Source: a virus
Taxonomy: Duplodnaviria > Caudoviricetes
IMG/VR virus record: IMGVR_UViG_3300020468_000072
Span: 1-24,145 of that record
DNA length: 24,145 nt
Direction: 5' to 3' (one strand)
The notes beneath the pieces were generated by a model, which saw only the letters and a list, made by a program, of their open reading frames with translations, searched no databases and was not told the origin of the DNA. Of this stretch, positions 2,328-24,145 are shown in pieces (position 1 is the first letter of the stretch; each line of letters begins with the position of its first letter). The translations under genes and the position numbers were made by a program.

Positions 2328-5300
2328 TTAATTTCTGCCTTCGCCTTTTTGTCCAGTAACTATAGCTCTTATTAAATCAAGTGGCCCTCTCGGTGTCCAT
2401 TTACCATTTTTAAGATCTACTAATAAACCAATAGGTTTAGCTGCAAAATATGTAGGAAATTTTGTTAATAAAGATAAAGCAGTTAATCCGCTTCTTACAT
2501 CGTAACCACTAACTTCTTTTTCTCCTTTTATAACACCGGGAAGATTCCAAATAAATCTAGTTGTACCTTGTACTGTTGTATTAATAAGACTTATAGATGG
2601 ACTTAACGTAATACGGTCATTGTATCTTTTGCTATCTATTTGATTTAATGGAGCCATAAATAACGTGCTTCCTAAAGGTACAAAAGCAGTACCATATCTT
2701 GCTATTGACATAAAACCAAATTCAAATAATTCATCAACAAAACCGTCTTCGTCATCATCTACTAATCCACCACCGGCTGCTTCTTGTATTGCTTCAGATA
2801 CAAGTGCAGGTAAAGCTAAACCAAATAAAAACGTAAACAACATTTGACCGCTAAATTTTTTAGAAGTAAATCCTATTTCTTTTATTAAAGCTTTATATTG
2901 TGTAGAATTTAAATTTGCTTGAGCATTAAAATAACTTGTAAATTGAAACATTGCTTTAAAAAATGGTTCAGCAATTTGATAACTTGCTACGTCTTCTGGC
3001 AATAAACTATCTTGTGTCATACGAACAGCACCATCAGCTTGTTGTATTGCTTCTTGTTGTATTTGTGCTTCTGTCATAGTTGTAGGTGCGTTAGCAGAAA
3101 CTTGATTGTATTTAGCTATCCATACAACGCTGTCTACATAATTTTGAAAAAATTGTTGGACAACATATCCATTTTTTCTTGCCCATGCTTGTAATTTTTC
3201 AAATCTTTGTGGATTTAAAATTAAATCATTCATTTGATCTTGCACATCAAACATTTGATTAACTTGCCGATCACGCATAAATGGTGACATTTGTGCTACT
3301 TCATTAGCCATTTGATGAGGTTCTCTTGTATATCTTCTAAATGCATCATTTAAATATTTATGTTCTATTTCTAATCGTGCAGGGATTAATCCTGTTATTT
3401 GTTGCATACCATTTTTAATACTTAAAAACATATAATTTAAACTTGTTGACCTTGTAATTGCACTAATAGCTTGATTTACAAAATGATCTTCTCCAAGTGT
3501 AGTTCTTTGTGATGCTGCATTTCTTAGCCAAGGTATTAACATTTTGTCAATTGCAGTAGGATCAACACGACCTAATGCACTAGAGAATTCTTTGTCTTTA
3601 AACAATCTAACTAAATCTGTTACAGCAGGTTGTATATACGCAAATCGCAAAGAGTTATCCATATGTTGTGCTTGCACTCCAAGATTAAAACTTAATGCTT
3701 TCATAGACCTAGTTCTAGGCTTAGTAAAACCTCTCGGTACAGCAGGTACTGCGTATCTCATTTCTTCTCTTACATTGTCTAAAGTTTGTTGTAGTCCTAA
3801 TTCTTTTCTGTTTATATTTTTGTCTAATGCAGCAGGTACATAACCACCTCTAAATGTTCCAAATTTATTAACTATAGGAGTTGCACCTATTTCTTTGAAA
3901 TAATATCCAAATACTTCTTTATGCGCTTGTTGTGTAAGCGGTAGCATTTCTTGATTTAAATCCCATACAGATTGTAAAAATTCAAAATCTTTTAACGTAA
4001 GATATCCTTCATTTATCATGCGGTCTACAAATGTATCCCATTTTCTTGTATCTAAAGAACCGTCATCTCTAAATTCACCCCATCCTCTACCTACTATTAA
4101 TTTTTCTAAATTACTTTTGTTGCCTGTATGTAACATAGCTCCAAGTAATTCAGCTTTGCCCATACCTCTTTCACGACCAAATGTATAAGATATGCCTTTG
4201 TTATTAACTAACTCAGGAGCTTTTATTAAACCTTTTCTAAAATCAACTTGTTCTAATAATTTAACGTAACGTCCTGTCCATTTTGGTCTTTCAGAACGCC
4301 ATTTATTAATAGGATCTTTTAATACACGCCAAATATATTTTGTAAATGAACCTGCTACTTCACCTTTTTTTGATACTAATACACCGCCACCTAAAGCACC
4401 ACCACCTCTTATAATCCTTGGACTACCTTCTCCATCTTTGCTTTTGCACCAAGATTCTACACGCCTTAGTCCAGATTTAATTCCTTCTAATTTCATAATT
4501 TGTCTTTCCCAAAAATTTGTTTCACCTGCTTCTCCAAAATCTTCTGAAGCACTTTGATCCATATTTTGTAGTTTTGGTATTAGATCATCTTTAATTACTT
4601 GTTTTTCTATTAATTTACCTTCAACTCGCATTTGTTTAGTGCGTCTTGATTGATACCACAATGATTGTATTATTTCGTCTAAAGTATCAAAATCTTGTGA
4701 AGTTAAATCTTTTATCTCACGACCCGGTAATTCTTTTGCACTTGTAATAACTAAATCTATTTCGTTAAAAGTATCTTTATCGTATTTTTCTAATTTACTT
4801 ACATATGATTCATCGCTTTCTATTTCTGGCCCTTCGCCAAAAAACGTCAATATTTCTTTAGCTGCGTTTACATAATTACTTTCTCTACTGTCAGTTTTTT
4901 CGTTGTACTTAAATATATCTTTTATTCTCTTATTAAATTTATCACGATGTTTTTGTACCTCTACAGCTTCACGAGCTAATTGACTATTTAATAATTCAGA
5001 TCTTTTAGCTTCTATAGCACCTCGCACATCACCAGTTCTCATTGCTTTTTCTAAAGCTTTTCTAGCTCTTTTTTCATTTTGTGCAAACACTGTTGGACGT
5101 ATATCACGCAATTTCATAGATGCCAAAATATCTCTAGCTACTAATCTTGCAGCAACAACTTGTTGACGTACAGGTTGCATTGTTTTATTTAAAAATTTTA
5201 ATTCAATTGCTAAAAATTTTGCTCTTGCTTCGTTATGTAATGCTTCTTGTAATTGCAATTCTTGTTGTCTAGGATCAGTTAAACCGCTATATTCATTTAA

Positions 5301-8300
5301 CATACGATCTTCTACTCTTTGTTTTATAACGTCTTTTATTGGTTCTAAATTTACTAAACCATTAATCATATCTAGTCCAGTTTCAAAACCAAACATTTCT
5401 GCAACCATATCAACAGGTAATCCATTTTTACCTACCATTCCATATTGACCTGTACCTAATTTTTTTATTTCTGATGCCATGTCATAAAATGGCACTAAAT
5501 TTTTTAAATCTTTTATATCTATTTTGTTACTTTCTAATGATTCAAATTGAGTTCCATCTTTGTCATTCCATAAACCACGTTTTAAAAAATTTTGTAATTT
5601 ATATAGACGTTCATTTTCAACATCTTTAGTTATTTCTTCTGTAACTTTCTTCCGAATTTTTTCAATTTGTTTTTGTTGTTGTTTTTCTAATTTAAATATT
5701 TTATTTTTTATCCAAGGTATTTGTCTCATACTTGCTTTAGTAAGACTTTCTATTGCTAAATCTTCATATTCTTTAATTGCATCTGTATATTGTTTCCATG
5801 TTGCATCATCCATTCCACTTTCTTGTTGAGTTGCAAACATAGGCTTCATGCCATATATTTGTTCTGCTTGTGTAATTGCTTCCTGACTAGCTAACATACG
5901 ATCCATTACACTTCTTACTTCGTCAGTTAATACAGGTAAATCAGTACCATTTTCTTCTCTATATAAATCATTTAATTCACCGCTAATTGAGTTGTATATT
6001 CGTGTTAAATATTTAGTAAATTCTCTAAATATATTTTGCAATTCAATACTAGGTGCTGCTTTTTGTTCTGTTATATATATCTCGTAGTTGTACGCAAATG
6101 CTTCATGGTATTTTCTTTTTTGTTTTAATGTAAGTTTGCTCCATGTATCAACATCTTTAACACCCCAAAAATTTAATAACACATTAAAATCATTTTGCAT
6201 TTCAGTTGTTGCTTGTCCAGACAACACTAAATCTTCATGCACAGTTAACATGAAATGTGCTGTTTCATGCAAAAACGTAGACATATCACTTTCTTTACTT
6301 AAAAAAGCTGTTAAAGTTTTTGGATCAAAACCACCTCTTGCATTACCGGGTATTTGTTGTTGTGATAATATTTTGCTTTCTTTTTCTAAATCTATTACAT
6401 CTACTCGAATAGACCCTCTAGGTTTTCCAACTGAGAGTCTGAAATCTTTTCGTCCGTTTGGGAATTCATCATCGAGCTTAAGTCGAGAAGGGTTGACTCT
6501 GAGTCCAACTGAGGTATCACCATAGCCAGTATCTGGGATAGTTCTGGTGGTAACGTAGACATCAGGTTCTCCAGCACTTCTAAGTTCACTGGACTTTCTG
6601 ATGTTGTCTGCTGCTCGTTTGTTGGTGTGGTGGTAAACGGTAACTGTTCCGTCTGTGTTAAGGGGGAGTCCTGTTGATTCGTCAATTCTTCCTTGTTGTT
6701 GGAAAGTATTAACCTCTCGTATTCCTCCTGTTCCTCCTTCTCCAGATTCACTTCTTCTTGTGCGCTCAATGGCCTGACGTTTGAGTTCATTGTCTACCTC
6801 CTGTAATGTGGTTTGGATGTCGGCATCTGATACGCCTTGCTGCCTAGCTAAAGATTCAGCAGCATTTGCATAGTCAGGTGCTTCGTTGTCTTCGTACCCT
6901 GAGTTTGTTTCTTGTGAATCAAGTTTAGCAGCGTCATACAAGCGTCTTTCTGGATACCAAAGCAATGCTTGTAGATCTGCCATTGTAAGATCTTTTTGCG
7001 TTTGTTGCAACTCTGTCAACACTTGACTAAATACTTTTCTTATATTTCTTCTTTCTGGCGCACCTTTTGGTGCTTCTTTTTGACCATCTAAATATTTTGC
7101 TAATGCATTACCGCCTTTTCTTATTTCTCCACCAATACTTATATGTGGATATCTTTTTTGTGGTGTACCTAATAAATCAAGCAAAAATTGTTTTCTTTCT
7201 ACCTTATCTTTAACTGTAGCTATCTCATTCATTTTTTTTCTATTGGCTTTTTTTGTACTTGCTTTTTGTATTGCAACGCCTACTTCATCTATATTTGACA
7301 ACTTAACTTTTACTCCAATAATTTCTGATAATAATTTTTTTTCTTTTAAAGACAATGCCTTAACTAATTCTTTTAATTGCCCACGTTTTACTTTAGCCTG
7401 TTTTGAATAATCTATAACTAGTTCACCTCTCATTCTTCCCCAAGTACGCATTAACCATCTATCCATAGTTAATTGTTCATAGTTTCCATATAAATTTGCA
7501 AAAAATCCATTACCAATTTTTGGCCCCATTACTGCTGCGCCATATACAATTTCACCTTGAGTTTCGCCAGATACTTCGTCATTTGTATATGCTTCTACTT
7601 CTTTAACTGTGTGAGTTGTCTTCATAAAATTTTCAAAGCTTTCAAATCCTTTTTCTTCAATTAATCTGTTAAACAATTTAAAGTTACGGTTAATTGCATC
7701 AGCAGCATCACCAATACCAATTTTTGTAGGAAACTTACCGTTAACTATGTAATAGCTGTATGCTTCTTCTGCAAGTTGAAAGTTTTTATCTACTTTTATA
7801 CCGTTAGATGTATTAGCTAATGCCCAAGTAAAAGCAAAATTTGCTTCTGGTTCAGTAGCTAGTTCTGGATGTATAAGTGCAAGTAAAGCTTTTGCTTTAG
7901 AAACTTTTTCGTTGTACCAACCAACTGCGTTTGAGTTTTCTATTAACGCAAATTTAGCATCTGCTAGTACTGTTTTAACAAGATACTTTTCTACTTCTGC
8001 GGTAAATTCTTTAACATCTACACCTGCTTTTTTAGCAGCGTCTACTACAAGTTTTTGTATTGCAATTTTAAAATCACGATTAGTTTTATAACTTTTACCT
8101 TTAGCAAAATTAAATGCAGCTTCTAAATTAGCTACATCAAAAATTGTGTCAGGAATTGGTTTGCCTTGTTCTTGTGGTTGTGTCCTTTGTGCAAAAATTT
8201 CTTCATTAATTAAATCTTGTTGTTTTATAATATCTGCTACGTCTGTTGCCCAAGTATTGCTTTCAGTTAATGATCTTATTTGATTATTATCAAAAACAAC

Positions 8301-10745
8301 AACTTCTTGATTGCCATTATCTCCTTTCATAATAATTCCATCATGCCCTAACTCTTTTAACCTTTCTTGAAAACCGTTAGCTGCTGTTTCACCACCACGT
8401 TTTAATTCAATTTTTTCTTGTATAGTCGCATAATATGGATTTTCTAAACGCACATACAAAGGTAAAACATCTTGTGCAGTATTTCCTTTTCTTTGAGTTT
8501 CGTATGACGCAGCCAAATTTTGTGCATCTTTACCACGCACCAAATATATTCCTTTACCAAAAGCACCAATATCTTTTTTGTTTGGATGATTAACATCAAA
8601 TTCATTTATATTATCTTGCGTACCATGATATAAAATTTCAGCATTGTCATTTTTATCTTTAAAAACTGATTTACCAATAAATTTTAAAAATTGTGCTGTA
8701 TCTGTTTTGGCTGTGCCATTTTGATTAAATAATTGTTCTTGTGGTGAAATTTGTACTTGGTCTGTACTAACTACTTTATATGGAAATCTTTTTGCAAATT
8801 CTTCTGGTAAAATTCCTAATTTATTACTTTGCGTAATAACGTAATCACGATAAAAATTTGAAGCTATTTGTAAACTTTTTTGTGTTTTAAATCTGCCTGT
8901 ACCTTTAAGCATATTAACAAAATCTTTTTTGACTTTATTAGCACTTTTACTAAAATCACTAGATTCTTTATTTTTGTTTGCTAATACTTGTATAGCTTCT
9001 TTTTTTAGTTTTTCTTTGTTAGCTAAAAAGTTTGTATTTTCGGCTCTACTAAAAGTGTCTTTATCTTTACGAAGATGGTCTTGTAATAAAAGATCAATTT
9101 CTGTACCTGCAAATTTTGCAGCATAATCACCTGTAGGAATTATTATGTCAGTACCTACTAATGTACCGTTTTTACTTGCGTCTGTTAATTGTTTAGCAAC
9201 TTCTGGTGATACTGCATTTACATCTTCCATCGTTAATCCACGACTATTCATTACATTAAGAAGAGTTTGTGCGTCTAAATAAAATTCTTTAATTCCATTT
9301 TCGTCACCTAATTGTTGTGCAAAAATATTAAATAATCTTGGGTTTCTTTCTTTTAATTTGCTGTTTGCTGATTGTGTTGCTAAATTTTCAAAAAATATAG
9401 AATCTTCTTTTGCTTGATTAGATTTATTTAAATCATATGAAAAAGAATACACACTACCCGGTAAACCAACTAAAACCATACCTTGCATAGTTCTTGCAAA
9501 AGTTGTGCCTAACCTAACAGCAACTCTACCTAAACCATCTGCACTGGTAAGGTCTTTTTCTAAATCACTATCTTGTAATGTAATTGCTAAATCACGACCT
9601 ATAACATTAGCTAATTCTTGCCCTACTTCAGTAAGGCCTTCATATGTGTTGTTTAATAAATAATTTTTTGCAAGATTTTTTAATGCTAATTTTCTTGATG
9701 GTTTTATTAATTCTTTAGCTATAACTTTTGTTGTTTGTTTTGCTAATGTTTTTCTTATAGGAGCAGTTACAAAACCTAAACCGACAAGTTCTAAAGCTGC
9801 ATTAGTAACACCAACACCTGCTGCAATATATTTTGATGACTCTTTATCAAGTCCTTCATCTAATAAATCCAAGTACATTGAACCTGCTTCTATAGCATAA
9901 GAATCGGCAGCCAATGTAGACATAAAACCAACAACCCACCCAGATTTTGCACCTGCAACTGCTCCCGGTATTGCGCCTACTCCACCTGCTACTGAACCTG
10001 TACCTGCTCCTATTAAACCTCCAGTTATTGCACCTGTTGTACCACCTGCAACTGCGTAAGGTAATGTCTTTGAGTACTGTCCAAATATTGCAAAACCTTC
10101 TTCAAAAATTCCTGTACCATCTCTTGCATACTCTTCTAACCTTTTATCAATTTCTGCTATTTGTAAAAAATCTTCTTCATCAGCTAAACCAAATTGTGCT
10201 TTAGTACCAATTCTACCTCTTCTTACTTGTAATCTACCTTTTGCCCAACCTTGACCTATATTCTCAGGTATTTTACCTGTAGATTTAAAAAGTCTTTCTA
10301 ACCCTTCTAAATTAGCAAGATTGTCATTTGCCAAAGCAGCAAATGTAGGATCAGTCAATTGTTTATATAATACTGGGCTATTATCTCTAGCAAATTCTAA
10401 TTCTTCTAATCTATCTCTTCTTTGTTTTTCAATCATTAACGTGACAGCTTGGTCACTATTTAAAGCAAATTCTTTTGGTAAACCTAGCTCATCTGCTAAT
10501 CGTGATGCTTCACCAACTTTGTCTGGATCTTTATCTATAACAAGTTGCAAATTAGCTTTAACTTGATTACGCATATTTTGTTCATCTTGTTCATGAAATT
10601 TTGCGTATGGATTTACATCTGTATCATCGATTTTTATTTCATTCTCTTTATCAATATTTTGACTTGGTGCTAAATTTAAAATATTTTCATTTTGCAATTC
10701 ATCGTCTTCTTTATGAAATTTTAAATATGGATTTGAAAGAGTCAT
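2328..10745 (-). CDS. Giant internal virion/ejection protein (T7 gp16 / BPP-1 Bbp10 position), polyvalent: ART-like, HhH-glycosylase-like, second ART-like and HExxH metallopeptidase domains
   Basis: 2805 aa, last of three genes after the nozzle. Gly/Ala-rich hydrophobic region ~aa 230-330; YHGT...GKGIY...GHDGII...EVVVFDNNQIRS (aa 706-825); GWY...GPKIGNGFFANL...TMDRW...LQALLW (aa ~940-1265); YHHT...VYVT...YGD...LDDEFP (aa ~1371-1445); HETAH (aa 1493) plus HEAFA (aa 1547); C-terminal hydrophobic segments. Confidence 0.85.
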   Translation of the reverse strand: MTLSNPYLKFHKEDDELQNENILNLAPSQNIDKENEIKIDDTDVNPYAKFHEQDEQNMRNQVKANLQLVIDKDPDKVGEASRLADELGLPKEFALNSDQAVTLMIEKQRRDRLEELEFARDNSPVLYKQLTDPTFAALANDNLANLEGLERLFKSTGKIPENIGQGWAKGRLQVRRGRIGTKAQFGLADEEDFLQIAEIDKRLEEYARDGTGIFEEGFAIFGQYSKTLPYAVAGGTTGAITGGLIGAGTGSVAGGVGAIPGAVAGAKSGWVVGFMSTLAADSYAIEAGSMYLDLLDEGLDKESSKYIAAGVGVTNAALELVGLGFVTAPIRKTLAKQTTKVIAKELIKPSRKLALKNLAKNYLLNNTYEGLTEVGQELANVIGRDLAITLQDSDLEKDLTSADGLGRVAVRLGTTFARTMQGMVLVGLPGSVYSFSYDLNKSNQAKEDSIFFENLATQSANSKLKERNPRLFNIFAQQLGDENGIKEFYLDAQTLLNVMNSRGLTMEDVNAVSPEVAKQLTDASKNGTLVGTDIIIPTGDYAAKFAGTEIDLLLQDHLRKDKDTFSRAENTNFLANKEKLKKEAIQVLANKNKESSDFSKSANKVKKDFVNMLKGTGRFKTQKSLQIASNFYRDYVITQSNKLGILPEEFAKRFPYKVVSTDQVQISPQEQLFNQNGTAKTDTAQFLKFIGKSVFKDKNDNAEILYHGTQDNINEFDVNHPNKKDIGAFGKGIYLVRGKDAQNLAASYETQRKGNTAQDVLPLYVRLENPYYATIQEKIELKRGGETAANGFQERLKELGHDGIIMKGDNGNQEVVVFDNNQIRSLTESNTWATDVADIIKQQDLINEEIFAQRTQPQEQGKPIPDTIFDVANLEAAFNFAKGKSYKTNRDFKIAIQKLVVDAAKKAGVDVKEFTAEVEKYLVKTVLADAKFALIENSNAVGWYNEKVSKAKALLALIHPELATEPEANFAFTWALANTSNGIKVDKNFQLAEEAYSYYIVNGKFPTKIGIGDAADAINRNFKLFNRLIEEKGFESFENFMKTTHTVKEVEAYTNDEVSGETQGEIVYGAAVMGPKIGNGFFANLYGNYEQLTMDRWLMRTWGRMRGELVIDYSKQAKVKRGQLKELVKALSLKEKKLLSEIIGVKVKLSNIDEVGVAIQKASTKKANRKKMNEIATVKDKVERKQFLLDLLGTPQKRYPHISIGGEIRKGGNALAKYLDGQKEAPKGAPERRNIRKVFSQVLTELQQTQKDLTMADLQALLWYPERRLYDAAKLDSQETNSGYEDNEAPDYANAAESLARQQGVSDADIQTTLQEVDNELKRQAIERTRRSESGEGGTGGIREVNTFQQQGRIDESTGLPLNTDGTVTVYHHTNKRAADNIRKSSELRSAGEPDVYVTTRTIPDTGYGDTSVGLRVNPSRLKLDDEFPNGRKDFRLSVGKPRGSIRVDVIDLEKESKILSQQQIPGNARGGFDPKTLTAFLSKESDMSTFLHETAHFMLTVHEDLVLSGQATTEMQNDFNVLLNFWGVKDVDTWSKLTLKQKRKYHEAFAYNYEIYITEQKAAPSIELQNIFREFTKYLTRIYNSISGELNDLYREENGTDLPVLTDEVRSVMDRMLASQEAITQAEQIYGMKPMFATQQESGMDDATWKQYTDAIKEYEDLAIESLTKASMRQIPWIKNKIFKLEKQQQKQIEKIRKKVTEEITKDVENERLYKLQNFLKRGLWNDKDGTQFESLESNKIDIKDLKNLVPFYDMASEIKKLGTGQYGMVGKNGLPVDMVAEMFGFETGLDMINGLVNLEPIKDVIKQRVEDRMLNEYSGLTDPRQQELQLQEALHNEARAKFLAIELKFLNKTMQPVRQQVVAARLVARDILASMKLRDIRPTVFAQNEKRARKALEKAMRTGDVRGAIEAKRSELLNSQLAREAVEVQKHRDKFNKRIKDIFKYNEKTDSRESNYVNAAKEILTFFGEGPEIESDESYVSKLEKYDKDTFNEIDLVITSAKELPGREIKDLTSQDFDTLDEIIQSLWYQSRRTKQMRVEGKLIEKQVIKDDLIPKLQNMDQSASEDFGEAGETNFWERQIMKLEGIKSGLRRVESWCKSKDGEGSPRIIRGGGALGGGVLVSKKGEVAGSFTKYIWRVLKDPINKWRSERPKWTGRYVKLLEQVDFRKGLIKAPELVNNKGISYTFGRERGMGKAELLGAMLHTGNKSNLEKLIVGRGWGEFRDDGSLDTRKWDTFVDRMINEGYLTLKDFEFLQSVWDLNQEMLPLTQQAHKEVFGYYFKEIGATPIVNKFGTFRGGYVPAALDKNINRKELGLQQTLDNVREEMRYAVPAVPRGFTKPRTRSMKALSFNLGVQAQHMDNSLRFAYIQPAVTDLVRLFKDKEFSSALGRVDPTAIDKMLIPWLRNAASQRTTLGEDHFVNQAISAITRSTSLNYMFLSIKNGMQQITGLIPARLEIEHKYLNDAFRRYTREPHQMANEVAQMSPFMRDRQVNQMFDVQDQMNDLILNPQRFEKLQAWARKNGYVVQQFFQNYVDSVVWIAKYNQVSANAPTTMTEAQIQQEAIQQADGAVRMTQDSLLPEDVASYQIAEPFFKAMFQFTSYFNAQANLNSTQYKALIKEIGFTSKKFSGQMLFTFLFGLALPALVSEAIQEAAGGGLVDDDEDGFVDELFEFGFMSIARYGTAFVPLGSTLFMAPLNQIDSKRYNDRITLSPSISLINTTVQGTTRFIWNLPGVIKGEKEVSGYDVRSGLTALSLLTKFPTYFAAKPIGLLVDLKNGKWTPRGPLDLIRAIVTGQKGEGRN
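6401..6790 (-). CDS. Nested +1-frame gene inside the giant ejection protein; 129-aa acidic protein of unknown function
   Basis: AGGAGGT-AGACA-ATG (SD at 6802-6796); 26 D/E versus 5 K/R; host-frame codons over the ART-like domain avoid TTA/GTA/ATA, which keeps the +1 frame open. Confidence 0.6.
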   Translation of the reverse strand: MNSNVRPLSAQEEVNLEKEEQEEYERLILSNNKEELTNQQDSPLTQTEQLPFTTTPTNEQQTTSESPVNLEVLENLMSTLPPELSQILAMVIPQLDSESTLLDLSSMMNSQTDEKISDSQLENLEGLFE

Positions 10746-22660: not shown

Positions 22661-23170
22661 TTAAATCTCCTTAGAATACATGATTTCTTGTACACCATAT
22701 TTTAATTTTGGTAGCAATTTTGCTAAAGCGGTGTTTTCTTTAGCGTGCCATAACATAAGTTTACAGCCTTCAGATCTAGCATGATCTTCTGTTGCCTTTA
22801 ACAAACGTAAACCTAATCGTCCACCCCGAAGTTCTTTTTTGACAAACAAAATGTCATTCTGGGCAATCCTTAGATCAGCATAATGCAAGTGATGCATCAT
22901 TATGTTCATAGAATATCCAATACAGACATTATCTTGCATTGCTACATAGACAAATAACCAACCTGTTGAATCAAGTGCTTCATACAGTTTGTAGTTTGGC
23001 TTTAGTTTCATTATTTGTTTGTTGCGAGCAATCTCTTCGTAATGCTCTTCAAATAATGATTTTGCTAAAACAACAAATTCATCGTAGGTGCAGAGTTTAA
23101 TCTCTGTTTTTGGTACTCTACTTTCGTTTACAGTAGCTTTACTATCATTAGTTACGGTCACACTAGTCAT
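22661..23170 (-). CDS. GNAT-family acetyltransferase
   Basis: DILFVKKELRGGRLGLRLL (acetyl-CoA binding motif A), ARSEGCKLMLW; ATGA overlap with the upstream gene. Confidence 0.8.
   Translation of the reverse strand: MTSVTVTNDSKATVNESRVPKTEIKLCTYDEFVVLAKSLFEEHYEEIARNKQIMKLKPNYKLYEALDSTGWLFVYVAMQDNVCIGYSMNIMMHHLHYADLRIAQNDILFVKKELRGGRLGLRLLKATEDHARSEGCKLMLWHAKENTALAKLLPKLKYGVQEIMYSKEI
23130..23163 (-). promoter_or_regulatory. Putative phage late promoter, copy 4 (inside the 5' end of the GNAT ORF)
   Basis: GTGTGACCGTAA (23163-23152), 16 bp, TACTGT (23135-23130). Confidence 0.65.
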
Positions 23171-23733
23171 AAAGGATATTTAGTTACACAATCAAATATT
23201 ATATGCACTCTGTCTGTAGTGCCAACATTGTCCGCTGTATGCATTTTCTTATGGTTAAACCACCAAACGTCACCTACCTCAAACTTTTGTTTCTGATCTC
23301 CGCAGGTTTGGCTACACCACTCGTTAGATGTGACTACTAAATGAAATCTGGAGTAATGATCTGCATACGTTCCTTGGTCGTTATGTTTAGTTACATGACC
23401 ACCATGTTTAAGATTAACTATAAGTACCCTACCCATTTCTATTACTTCTAATTTTTCTAGTATTGGTCGCATTAATGGTACTAATGCATCCTTCAAATAC
23501 TTCATACTTGGGTAGTCATACGATCCTATGTCGTACATGACGTAGTAAGGAGTCATTTTTAGTGGCCCTCTAACGTATATTGACTCGGTATCTTTATGTG
23601 GTGTACCAGTAAAATGTTGACGGTGTTTTATTTCTTTCCATAACTCAGGTTTACCGTCCAACAATTGGAGTAATGGGTCTACATCTAGACCTTCTGCTAT
23701 ACGAACAAAGTTACATTCTGGTGTATGGGTCAT
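23167..23733 (-). CDS. Aspartyl/asparaginyl beta-hydroxylase-like 2OG-Fe(II) oxygenase
   Basis: HxD (KHND), RFHL, VWWFNHKKMH, DRVHIIFD; the start is probably ATG 23733 (AAGGAGG just upstream) rather than 23754. Confidence 0.85.
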   Translation of the reverse strand: MTHTPECNFVRIAEGLDVDPLLQLLDGKPELWKEIKHRQHFTGTPHKDTESIYVRGPLKMTPYYVMYDIGSYDYPSMKYLKDALVPLMRPILEKLEVIEMGRVLIVNLKHGGHVTKHNDQGTYADHYSRFHLVVTSNEWCSQTCGDQKQKFEVGDVWWFNHKKMHTADNVGTTDRVHIIFDCVTKYPL

Positions 23734-24145
23734 ATTCCTCCTTCTGAGTAGCAACTTTACGTCTTTTGATGTAGATGTCCTCCATCTCTTTCTTGGCTAC
23801 TGGGAGGGCAAAGGTTAGTGCTAGGGCATCTGCTAAATCTGGTGACCCTGCTCCCTGTAATCTCTTCTTTATCTGATCCTTACTTTCCAATACTTTCCTA
23901 CCTACATTGTCGTACCAATATATCGGTGTTGCTAACTCTTGTTTGAGTGCGGTGTCGTTCGGTATTGCACCTCCCATCTCTATCCATTCTTTCATTAACC
24001 ACCACATCTCTGTCCTACGGTTAATGTATTGCTCTGGTTTGGTTGCCTTACCTCCAAATGGTATTTCTATTACGTCATATGACAACTGCCTTAGTCTGTC
24101 GATTACTCCACTACCTGCACCTGCATCACAGAACACTGCATCTGG
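23711..24145 (-). CDS. terL: Terminase large subunit, C-terminal nuclease domain (partial)
   Basis: Frame open to the right edge; FCDAGAGSGVIDRL, YINRRTEMW, LESKDQIKKR, SPDLADALALTFA. Confidence 0.9.
   Translation of the reverse strand, partial: PDAVFCDAGAGSGVIDRLRQLSYDVIEIPFGGKATKPEQYINRRTEMWWLMKEWIEMGGAIPNDTALKQELATPIYWYDNVGRKVLESKDQIKKRLQGAGSPDLADALALTFALPVAKKEMEDIYIKRRKVATQKEEYDPYTRM

Follow-up and report, generated by a model that had tools for sequence, protein, structure and literature searches.

The nesting of one phage gene in another is a known arrangement, as is the toxin-immunity pair, and small acidic inhibitors are equally well established (the MuF toxins are polymorphic toxin-immunity pairs, Ugi and Ocr are acidic DNA-mimic inhibitors, and λ Rz1 is a same-strand gene nested in the +1 frame of Rz with a start of its own). 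The locus analyzed here resembles each of these in part. With Rz1/Rz it shares a same-strand +1 nested phage gene that has its own start and whose product likely binds that of the gene around it, but unlike Rz1 it encodes no signal peptide or cysteine, and it would have originated through capture of a gene pair and later overprinting of a folded enzyme. With Ugi and Ocr it shares small size and strong acidity of the product, whose target, unlike theirs, would be the phage's own cargo and not a host enzyme. With polymorphic toxin-immunity pairs such as Rhs TreTu-TriTu and RhsP2-RhsI2 it shares a deliverable enzyme and then a small cognate gene tightly linked behind it; distant relatives in which the small gene is separate (L661, L676 and L684-L687) have the toxin-immunity layout itself, whereas in the window the enzyme forms an inner segment of a polyprotein, in whose gene the putative partner lies out of frame. 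Polyvalent proteins are described for phages and conjugative elements (Iyer et al. 2017, PMC5512222); those of phages are encoded in the midst of virion genes and are believed to enter the particle and be injected, and they share with this locus a giant multi-cargo protein encoded among virion genes, ART-PolyVal and LPD22 domains and an HExxH region. The main text of that paper does not contain the words "overlap", "linker" or "glycosylase" and the passages of it used here describe no nested partner genes; a literature search, with most subscription papers outside its scope, returned no account of nested partner genes in giant virion genes. New here are the linkage to a cognate domain, the series of separate, nested and fused partners, and the overprinting of a folded enzyme.

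The window, by which we mean the whole 24-kb virus record analyzed, carries on its minus strand a podophage structural module that encodes a portal, a major capsid protein, tail proteins, a gp14-like protein and a 2805-aa giant protein; the capsid, tail and gp14-like genes precede the giant gene (table 1), whose own frame we call the host frame. The C-terminal half of the giant protein matches the bbp10 product of Bordetella phage BPP-1 (E 1e-75), and the presence of several conflict domains in a single chain, in a virion-gene setting, marks it as a polyvalent protein. Its HETAH-motif region has no Pfam match and is a candidate zincin-type processing peptidase, a role taken from passages of PMC5512222. 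Hydrophobic-then-glutamine motifs lie on either side of the downstream ART domain (TFQQQ and ILSQQQ, at 6693-6707 and 6354-6371 on the minus strand) and may be processing sites for this peptidase; similar motifs recur at cargo borders across many relatives, where short nested ORFs frequently stop. Between the terminase and portal genes (22661-23754, minus strand) are a GNAT acetyltransferase gene and an Asp/Asn β-hydroxylase-like gene. Of cultured phages, the closest relative found is Limnohabitans phage DC33 (L461, PQ492659.1), whose capsid protein is 86.7% identical and whose record is filed as Inoviridae despite its podophage-type capsid gene.

Table 1. Features of the giant gene and of the gene nested in it (positions in the window)
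Feature	Position	Strand	Remarks
Host gene, 2805-aa giant internal-virion (polyvalent) protein, Bbp10-like	2328..10745	-	LPD22, ART-PolyVal, phrog_9880
First ART (ART-PolyVal), host residues 701-832	8250..8645	-	PF18760 E 3.8e-17
DUF7178-like helical enzyme-like cargo domain, host residues 869-1312	6810..8141	-	Kept in 95/95 cassette copies
Shine-Dalgarno AGGAGGT	6796..6802	-	Host codons CAG GAG GTA, Q1315-E1316-V1317
Nested +1-frame gene, 129 aa, acidic	6401..6790	-	AGGAGGT, 5 nt, ATG at 6790; TAG ends at 6401
Nested residues 1-33, acidic N-terminal helix (predicted helix 10-33)	6692..6790	-	Common to ART-less relatives; over host linker
Nested residues 34-64, predicted disordered S/T/P/Q linker	6599..6691	-	pLDDT under 50 for 33-62
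Nested residues 65-129, predicted four-helix module over ART core	6404..6598	-	Helices 70-77, 82-91, 101-111, 118-128; pLDDT about 80
Compact ART-fold cargo domain, host residues 1352-1455	6381..6692	-	Model pLDDT 90; also stand-alone gene
HETAH-motif region, host residues 1470-1570	6036..6338	-	HExxH motif directly visible, 1493-1497

A preliminary description of this DNA reported an acidic +1-frame ORF, led by a Shine-Dalgarno sequence, inside the 2805-aa gene, and it is present exactly as reported: it spans host residues 1319-1448 (the gene running from 10745 to 2328), and its product, helical according to the model, has 26 D/E and 5 K/R (net charge about -21). The reported stop on a host-frame GTA GAT is likewise there (V1448-D1449), within the last strands of the ART model. 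The codon shift and rise in GC claimed over the ART-like domain are borne out by counts, since over the nested stretch the host frame uses CTC 5 times, CTT 3 times and TTA never for Leu, GTT, GTC and GTA 6, 2 and 1 times for Val, and ATT, ATC and ATA 3, 2 and 1 times for Ile, while TTA, GTA and ATA are the commonest codons for these residues in the rest of the gene, and GC is 0.45-0.46 against about 0.30 in the flanks. The open +1 frame is beyond chance. This frame has 270 stops in the 2805 codons of the giant gene, about one per ten, and its next longest stop-free run is 55 codons; synonymous recoding of the stretch with the gene's own codon usage left it stop-free in 0 of 100,000 trials, and recoding with third-base frequencies matched to the stretch in 8 of 100,000. 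AGGAGGT occurs twice on the minus strand of the window. RNA folding at the nested start region is no better than in shuffles (z -0.11), and a promoter scan gave 4 sites where chance predicts 3.5, and its minus-strand site at 7010-6982 therefore does not count as evidence for a promoter. A second in-frame ATG at 6562 (minus strand), with GGAG upstream, would give a 53-aa product; a Met at this start is kept in 89 of 95 relatives, and the GGAG there may only mirror a host-frame Gly-Glu.

The nested protein has no usable match among families, structures or the Atlas (best structure Z 5.2), and it has neither a sequence nor a fold match to Ugi or Ocr; the pTM of its model is 0.38. A profile search of 1.84 billion proteins gave 12 matches: 10 are this ORF or relatives of it, and the remaining two are long low-complexity proteins. 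A suspected resemblance to acyl carrier protein found no support in the searches, and a spanin of the Rz1 type is ruled out by the lack of any cysteine, hydrophobic leader or signal peptide in the 129 residues.

Among the first 80 related loci the frame is open in 75 (including four cut by contig ends and one that ends 11 codons early), open from a different start in one and not open in four. In a larger sample of 160 distinct complete ART cores, 123 have the +1 frame open behind a Shine-Dalgarno sequence of at least 5 matching bases, and the spacer is 5 nt in all 123 even though the start is ATG in 86, TTG in 30 and GTG in 7; in five of these open copies the host frame is broken within 300 codons. 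Selection was measured on 95 non-redundant sequences. Synonymous codons that would put a stop in the +1 frame occur at 1 of 1218 sites in the ART and 0 of 209 in the linker (1 in 1427 inside), as opposed to 53-75% of sites in five flanking regions. Four-fold sites have 5.4 changes per site inside compared with 8.6-14.8 in the flanks, and 8 of 32 are invariant inside compared with 0 of 53 outside. In 94 of the 95 relatives the third base of host codon 1315 is G, and in 94 codon 1316 is GAG, although elsewhere only 10-13% of Gln, Glu and Lys codons end in G. The constraint is also uneven within the nested frame, with 3.6 four-fold changes per site under nested residues 65-129 and 8.5 under residues 34-64 (p=0.007), and under the first helix identity is higher in the +1 frame (0.46) than in the host frame (0.36). 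To judge from these comparisons the nested ORF is almost certainly a real gene under selection.

The preliminary description offered the domain upstream of the ORF as a second possible target, and it is this option that the linkage supports. The DUF7178-like domain lies upstream in all 95 cassette copies, and 461 of 568 loci with a DUF7178-like C-terminus also have the ART. The ART-less set comprises 60 distinct loci with enough downstream DNA, and in each of the 37 non-redundant ones that were scored the +1 frame beats at least 97 of 100 synonymous recodings on a profile of nested residues 1-33; the 37 range in GC from 0.40 to 0.68, 31 of them beat all 100, only 15 score at least 10 bits, and several have weak or shifted starts. 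Many of the ART-less nested starts fall 54-62 codons past the tryptophan of a conserved WYPE motif (56 in the window). In five loci (L571, L577, L593, L597 and L598) the N-terminal part of the nested frame is not acidic. Phage DC33 has a 71-codon version, starting at L461:2774 behind GAAGGAG-ATG, that is unannotated, as are the nested genes in the phage records examined. Further +1 ORFs lie behind other cargo domains of the same giant genes, at L461:3662 and in L457 and L458. The conserved part of the nested protein, its predicted N-terminal acidic helix, by these measures travels with the upstream DUF7178-like domain, and the protein is very likely a partner of that domain.

The upstream domain itself belongs to a family with at least 527 candidate stretches in IMG/VR. 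Its Atlas neighbours carry PF23802 on 14-33% of their members, and 12 of 28 members of its alignment match PF23802 below the cut-off of 27 bits (best 23 bits, E 8.6e-5). Sequence search gave no solved relative, and there was no match in 401 sampled genomes. The domain is only slightly basic (67 K/R, 60 D/E). By eye its motif order is like that of Nth, and profile comparison aligned one of the motifs; the hhalign probability against HhH-GPD glycosylases is under 1%, which is not significant, and the label "glycosylase-like" applied to this domain appears to reflect a motif resemblance only.

The ART-like call made earlier for the domain under the nested ORF is supported by its predicted structure, which matches TreTu (Z 7.3, rmsd 3.0 over 85 residues), KptA (Z 6.8) and RhsP2 (Z 5.7); the best of these Z values lies below the caution line of 8, yet nearly all of the best 50 matches are ART-fold chains, and there are weak KptA and Tox-ART-HYD1 Pfam matches. 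The strand-1 His, strand-2 aromatic and late acidic residue looked for in an ART fold are conserved: H1372, H1373 and D1434 are present in 95 of 95 sequences, D1426 in 94, and residue 1397 is Tyr in 88 and Phe in 7; these residues presumably have catalytic roles. In one branch (L063, L135-L141) the central ART motif is strongly changed (Tyr to Phe) and the nested helix pattern is kept. Relatives of the domain occur as stand-alone genes of 109-126 aa and also in other giant proteins. The 37 ART cores outside the 123 include three in the same cassette (two with a weaker Shine-Dalgarno sequence and one with a frameshift), L076, which is separately open, and 33 copies in other settings without the ORF, of which 30 have +1 stops and three are open only from the core edge and have no Shine-Dalgarno sequence. 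In a tree of 48 ARTs the 16 nested copies fall in one branch (support 90/94, not starred) together with three ORF-less copies, L152, L078 and L366, two of which have a decayed +1 relic. The claim that the ORF travels with the ART therefore did not hold, since 33 ART copies lack it, three of them in the same branch. Because ORF-less copies occur both inside and outside the nested branch, the extension over the ART is likely derived, and the stand-alone genes indicate that an ART does not always need it. A nested ORF with a strong Shine-Dalgarno sequence was also sought over and after the first ART (host residues 701-832), and none was found. At L076:2906-3349 the same ART is preceded by another kind of helical enzyme-like domain, whose own +1 ORF of 148 codons extends over the ART; P0052 resembles this arrangement with another N-terminus. 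At L174 a frameshift at the nested start fuses the nested N-terminus to the host frame, which may be an assembly error or a natural variant, and P0050 and P0056 are similar chimeras.

More distant loci, about 30-45% identical to a distant query, show how the acidic ORF can be placed relative to the enzyme. Among the 64 that were classified (L643, L644, L647 and L697, which lack an anchor, being left out) it is nested in 47, falls within a C-terminal tail in 5, forms a gene of its own across the enzyme's stop in 9 (five in the +1 frame and four in +2 with an ATGA/GTGA-type overlap) and is undetected by the test in 3. A profile of 10 nested peptides, run against 432 ORF pieces, found the separate genes of L661 (E 4.5e-11), L676 (1e-10) and L687 (2.9e-7), and it also picked out L671, where enzyme and peptide form one in-frame fusion with the peptide at the C-terminus (E 1.6e-7); L667 has the enzyme and no partner at the corresponding place. 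The small partner is thus nested, separate or fused at the same place in different relatives, so it is likely that an enzyme-partner pair was swallowed by the giant protein. The window helix scores 4.2 bits against the distant partner family, compared with 5.6 for the best of 20 shuffles, and 7 of 51 near members beat their own shuffles; with no sequence match between them, the link between the window helix and the distant family is positional and compositional. In GC-rich loci the fraction of A-ending host codons is 0.45 in the linker and 0.11 in the enzyme (higher in the linker in 60 of 62), a bias that a Glu/Gln/Asp-rich gene in the +1 frame would be expected to impress on the linker. An acidic +1 stretch also occurs in the tail of four megaplasmid copies (Bosea, Methylorubrum, Rhizobium); in L643-L646 a stand-alone DUF7178-like enzyme gene on alphaproteobacterial megaplasmids has an unannotated acidic +1 ORF in its 3' tail. 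Tails of the nested frame can be specific to what lies downstream, since the nested ORF closes with a different, short helical hairpin in 10 of 17 loci that have one particular downstream domain (without a Pfam match, and which we take to be GNAT-like) and in 1 of 80 that lack it; in several of the seven misses a variant hairpin is visible by eye. By analogy, the predicted four-helix tail over the ART in the window occupies a slot equivalent to that of the hairpin.

What this gene does is best weighed against four other readings. That there is no functional protein, and that the open frame and GC content came from a higher-GC donor or the Shine-Dalgarno sequence serves pausing or frameshifting, we regard as extremely unlikely. 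The GC of the core (0.47) in loci of GC 0.33 would fit such a donor, and internal Shine-Dalgarno sequences can stimulate frameshifts; but higher-GC import, raised as an objection in the preliminary description, fails to explain the ORF, given the 8 in 100,000 of the GC-matched simulation and the GC-richer ART copies that still carry +1 stops, and neither alternative accords with the switching among ATG, TTG and GTG at a fixed spacing or with residue-level constraint in the +1 frame. An independent small effector, a DNA mimic or host-protein inhibitor that hitch-hikes with the cassette, would suit the high negative charge and helical character of the product, yet it is very improbable in view of the L671 fusion and the fixed place behind one domain across genomes of 33-69% GC, in phages and megaplasmids alike.

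The preliminary description's lead reading, that the protein is mainly an immunity protein of the overlapped ART, draws on real observations: constraint on the 65-129 module goes further than avoiding stops, the +1 frame is likewise open across the ART in P0051 and in a second lineage (L076, P0052), the hairpin case shows a nested tail specific to a downstream domain, and the closest folds, TreTu and RhsP2, were solved with immunity proteins according to their PDB titles. We nevertheless find it distinctly unlikely, since ART copies elsewhere, even in the same branch, lack the ORF, and the ORF start and first helix occur where there is no ART. A true partner of the upstream domain could also be a chaperone, activator or targeting subunit, packaged or co-acting; all the linkage evidence fits this equally well, and a tightly inhibiting peptide, unless cut off, would leave the L671 fusion enzyme blocked for good. 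It too is unlikely, though less so than an ART-directed role, since the partner is a separate polypeptide in 61 of 64 loci, which suits one that is left behind, and most small acidic genes that overlap the stop of an enzyme delivered to other cells encode immunity proteins. The earlier idea of immunity linked to a cargo thus survives in that there is a real overprinted gene that behaves as a small cargo partner, and fails in its linkage to the ART. We consider it probable that the nested product is a dedicated binding partner of the DUF7178-like domain and inhibits it: it is always behind the same domain, whose relatives carry a separate, nested or fused partner, and so is likely a built-in inhibitor.

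Under this built-in-inhibitor reading, an enzyme gene and a stop-overlapping small acidic gene would have been captured together into the giant protein; the enzyme's stop would then have been lost, so that the host frame continues across the partner gene, yielding an Arg/Gly/Ala-rich "linker", while the partner survived out of frame with its own ribosome-binding site. Late in infection ribosomes would start at the internal Shine-Dalgarno sequence of the same mRNA, so that partner and giant protein would be produced side by side. With its acidic helix (residues 1-33) the partner would cover a presumed basic, nucleic-acid-binding site on the enzyme, and such inhibition during particle assembly would protect both the phage DNA under replication and the cell that makes it. 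The giant protein would then be packaged and ejected into the next cell without its partner, and the cargo would act there. In the lineage of the window the nested frame would have been extended over the next cargo, the ART, giving a predicted four-helix module that is under selection at the amino acid level; this extension may restrain the ART, which would make the product a two-headed inhibitor of two adjacent cargos.

If a cognate partner gene is indeed kept in this way, then cargo internal to a virion polyprotein can have one, in place of the downstream immunity gene that C-terminal toxins use, and three evolutionary states (separate, nested and fused) are caught in one family. A folded 65-residue module, to judge from its predicted fold, appears to have arisen atop a conserved enzyme. 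The nested gene would be a cloning key for an uncharacterised and widespread enzyme family, and the cultured Limnohabitans phage DC33 makes the partner model testable. A wider and decidedly tentative possibility is that giant phage ejection proteins are two-frame polyproteins, in which the main frame strings together cargos and the +1 frame a string of matching antidote modules, the antidotes being shuffled and joined with their cargos (a helix for the upstream enzyme plus a tail for the downstream one) and, where a new cargo arrived with no antidote, as in the case of this ART, one having evolved de novo on the enzyme's own coding sequence. If that is true, Arg/Gly/Ala-rich "linkers" in such proteins would be the shadows of hidden immunity genes, each of them marking a toxic cargo.
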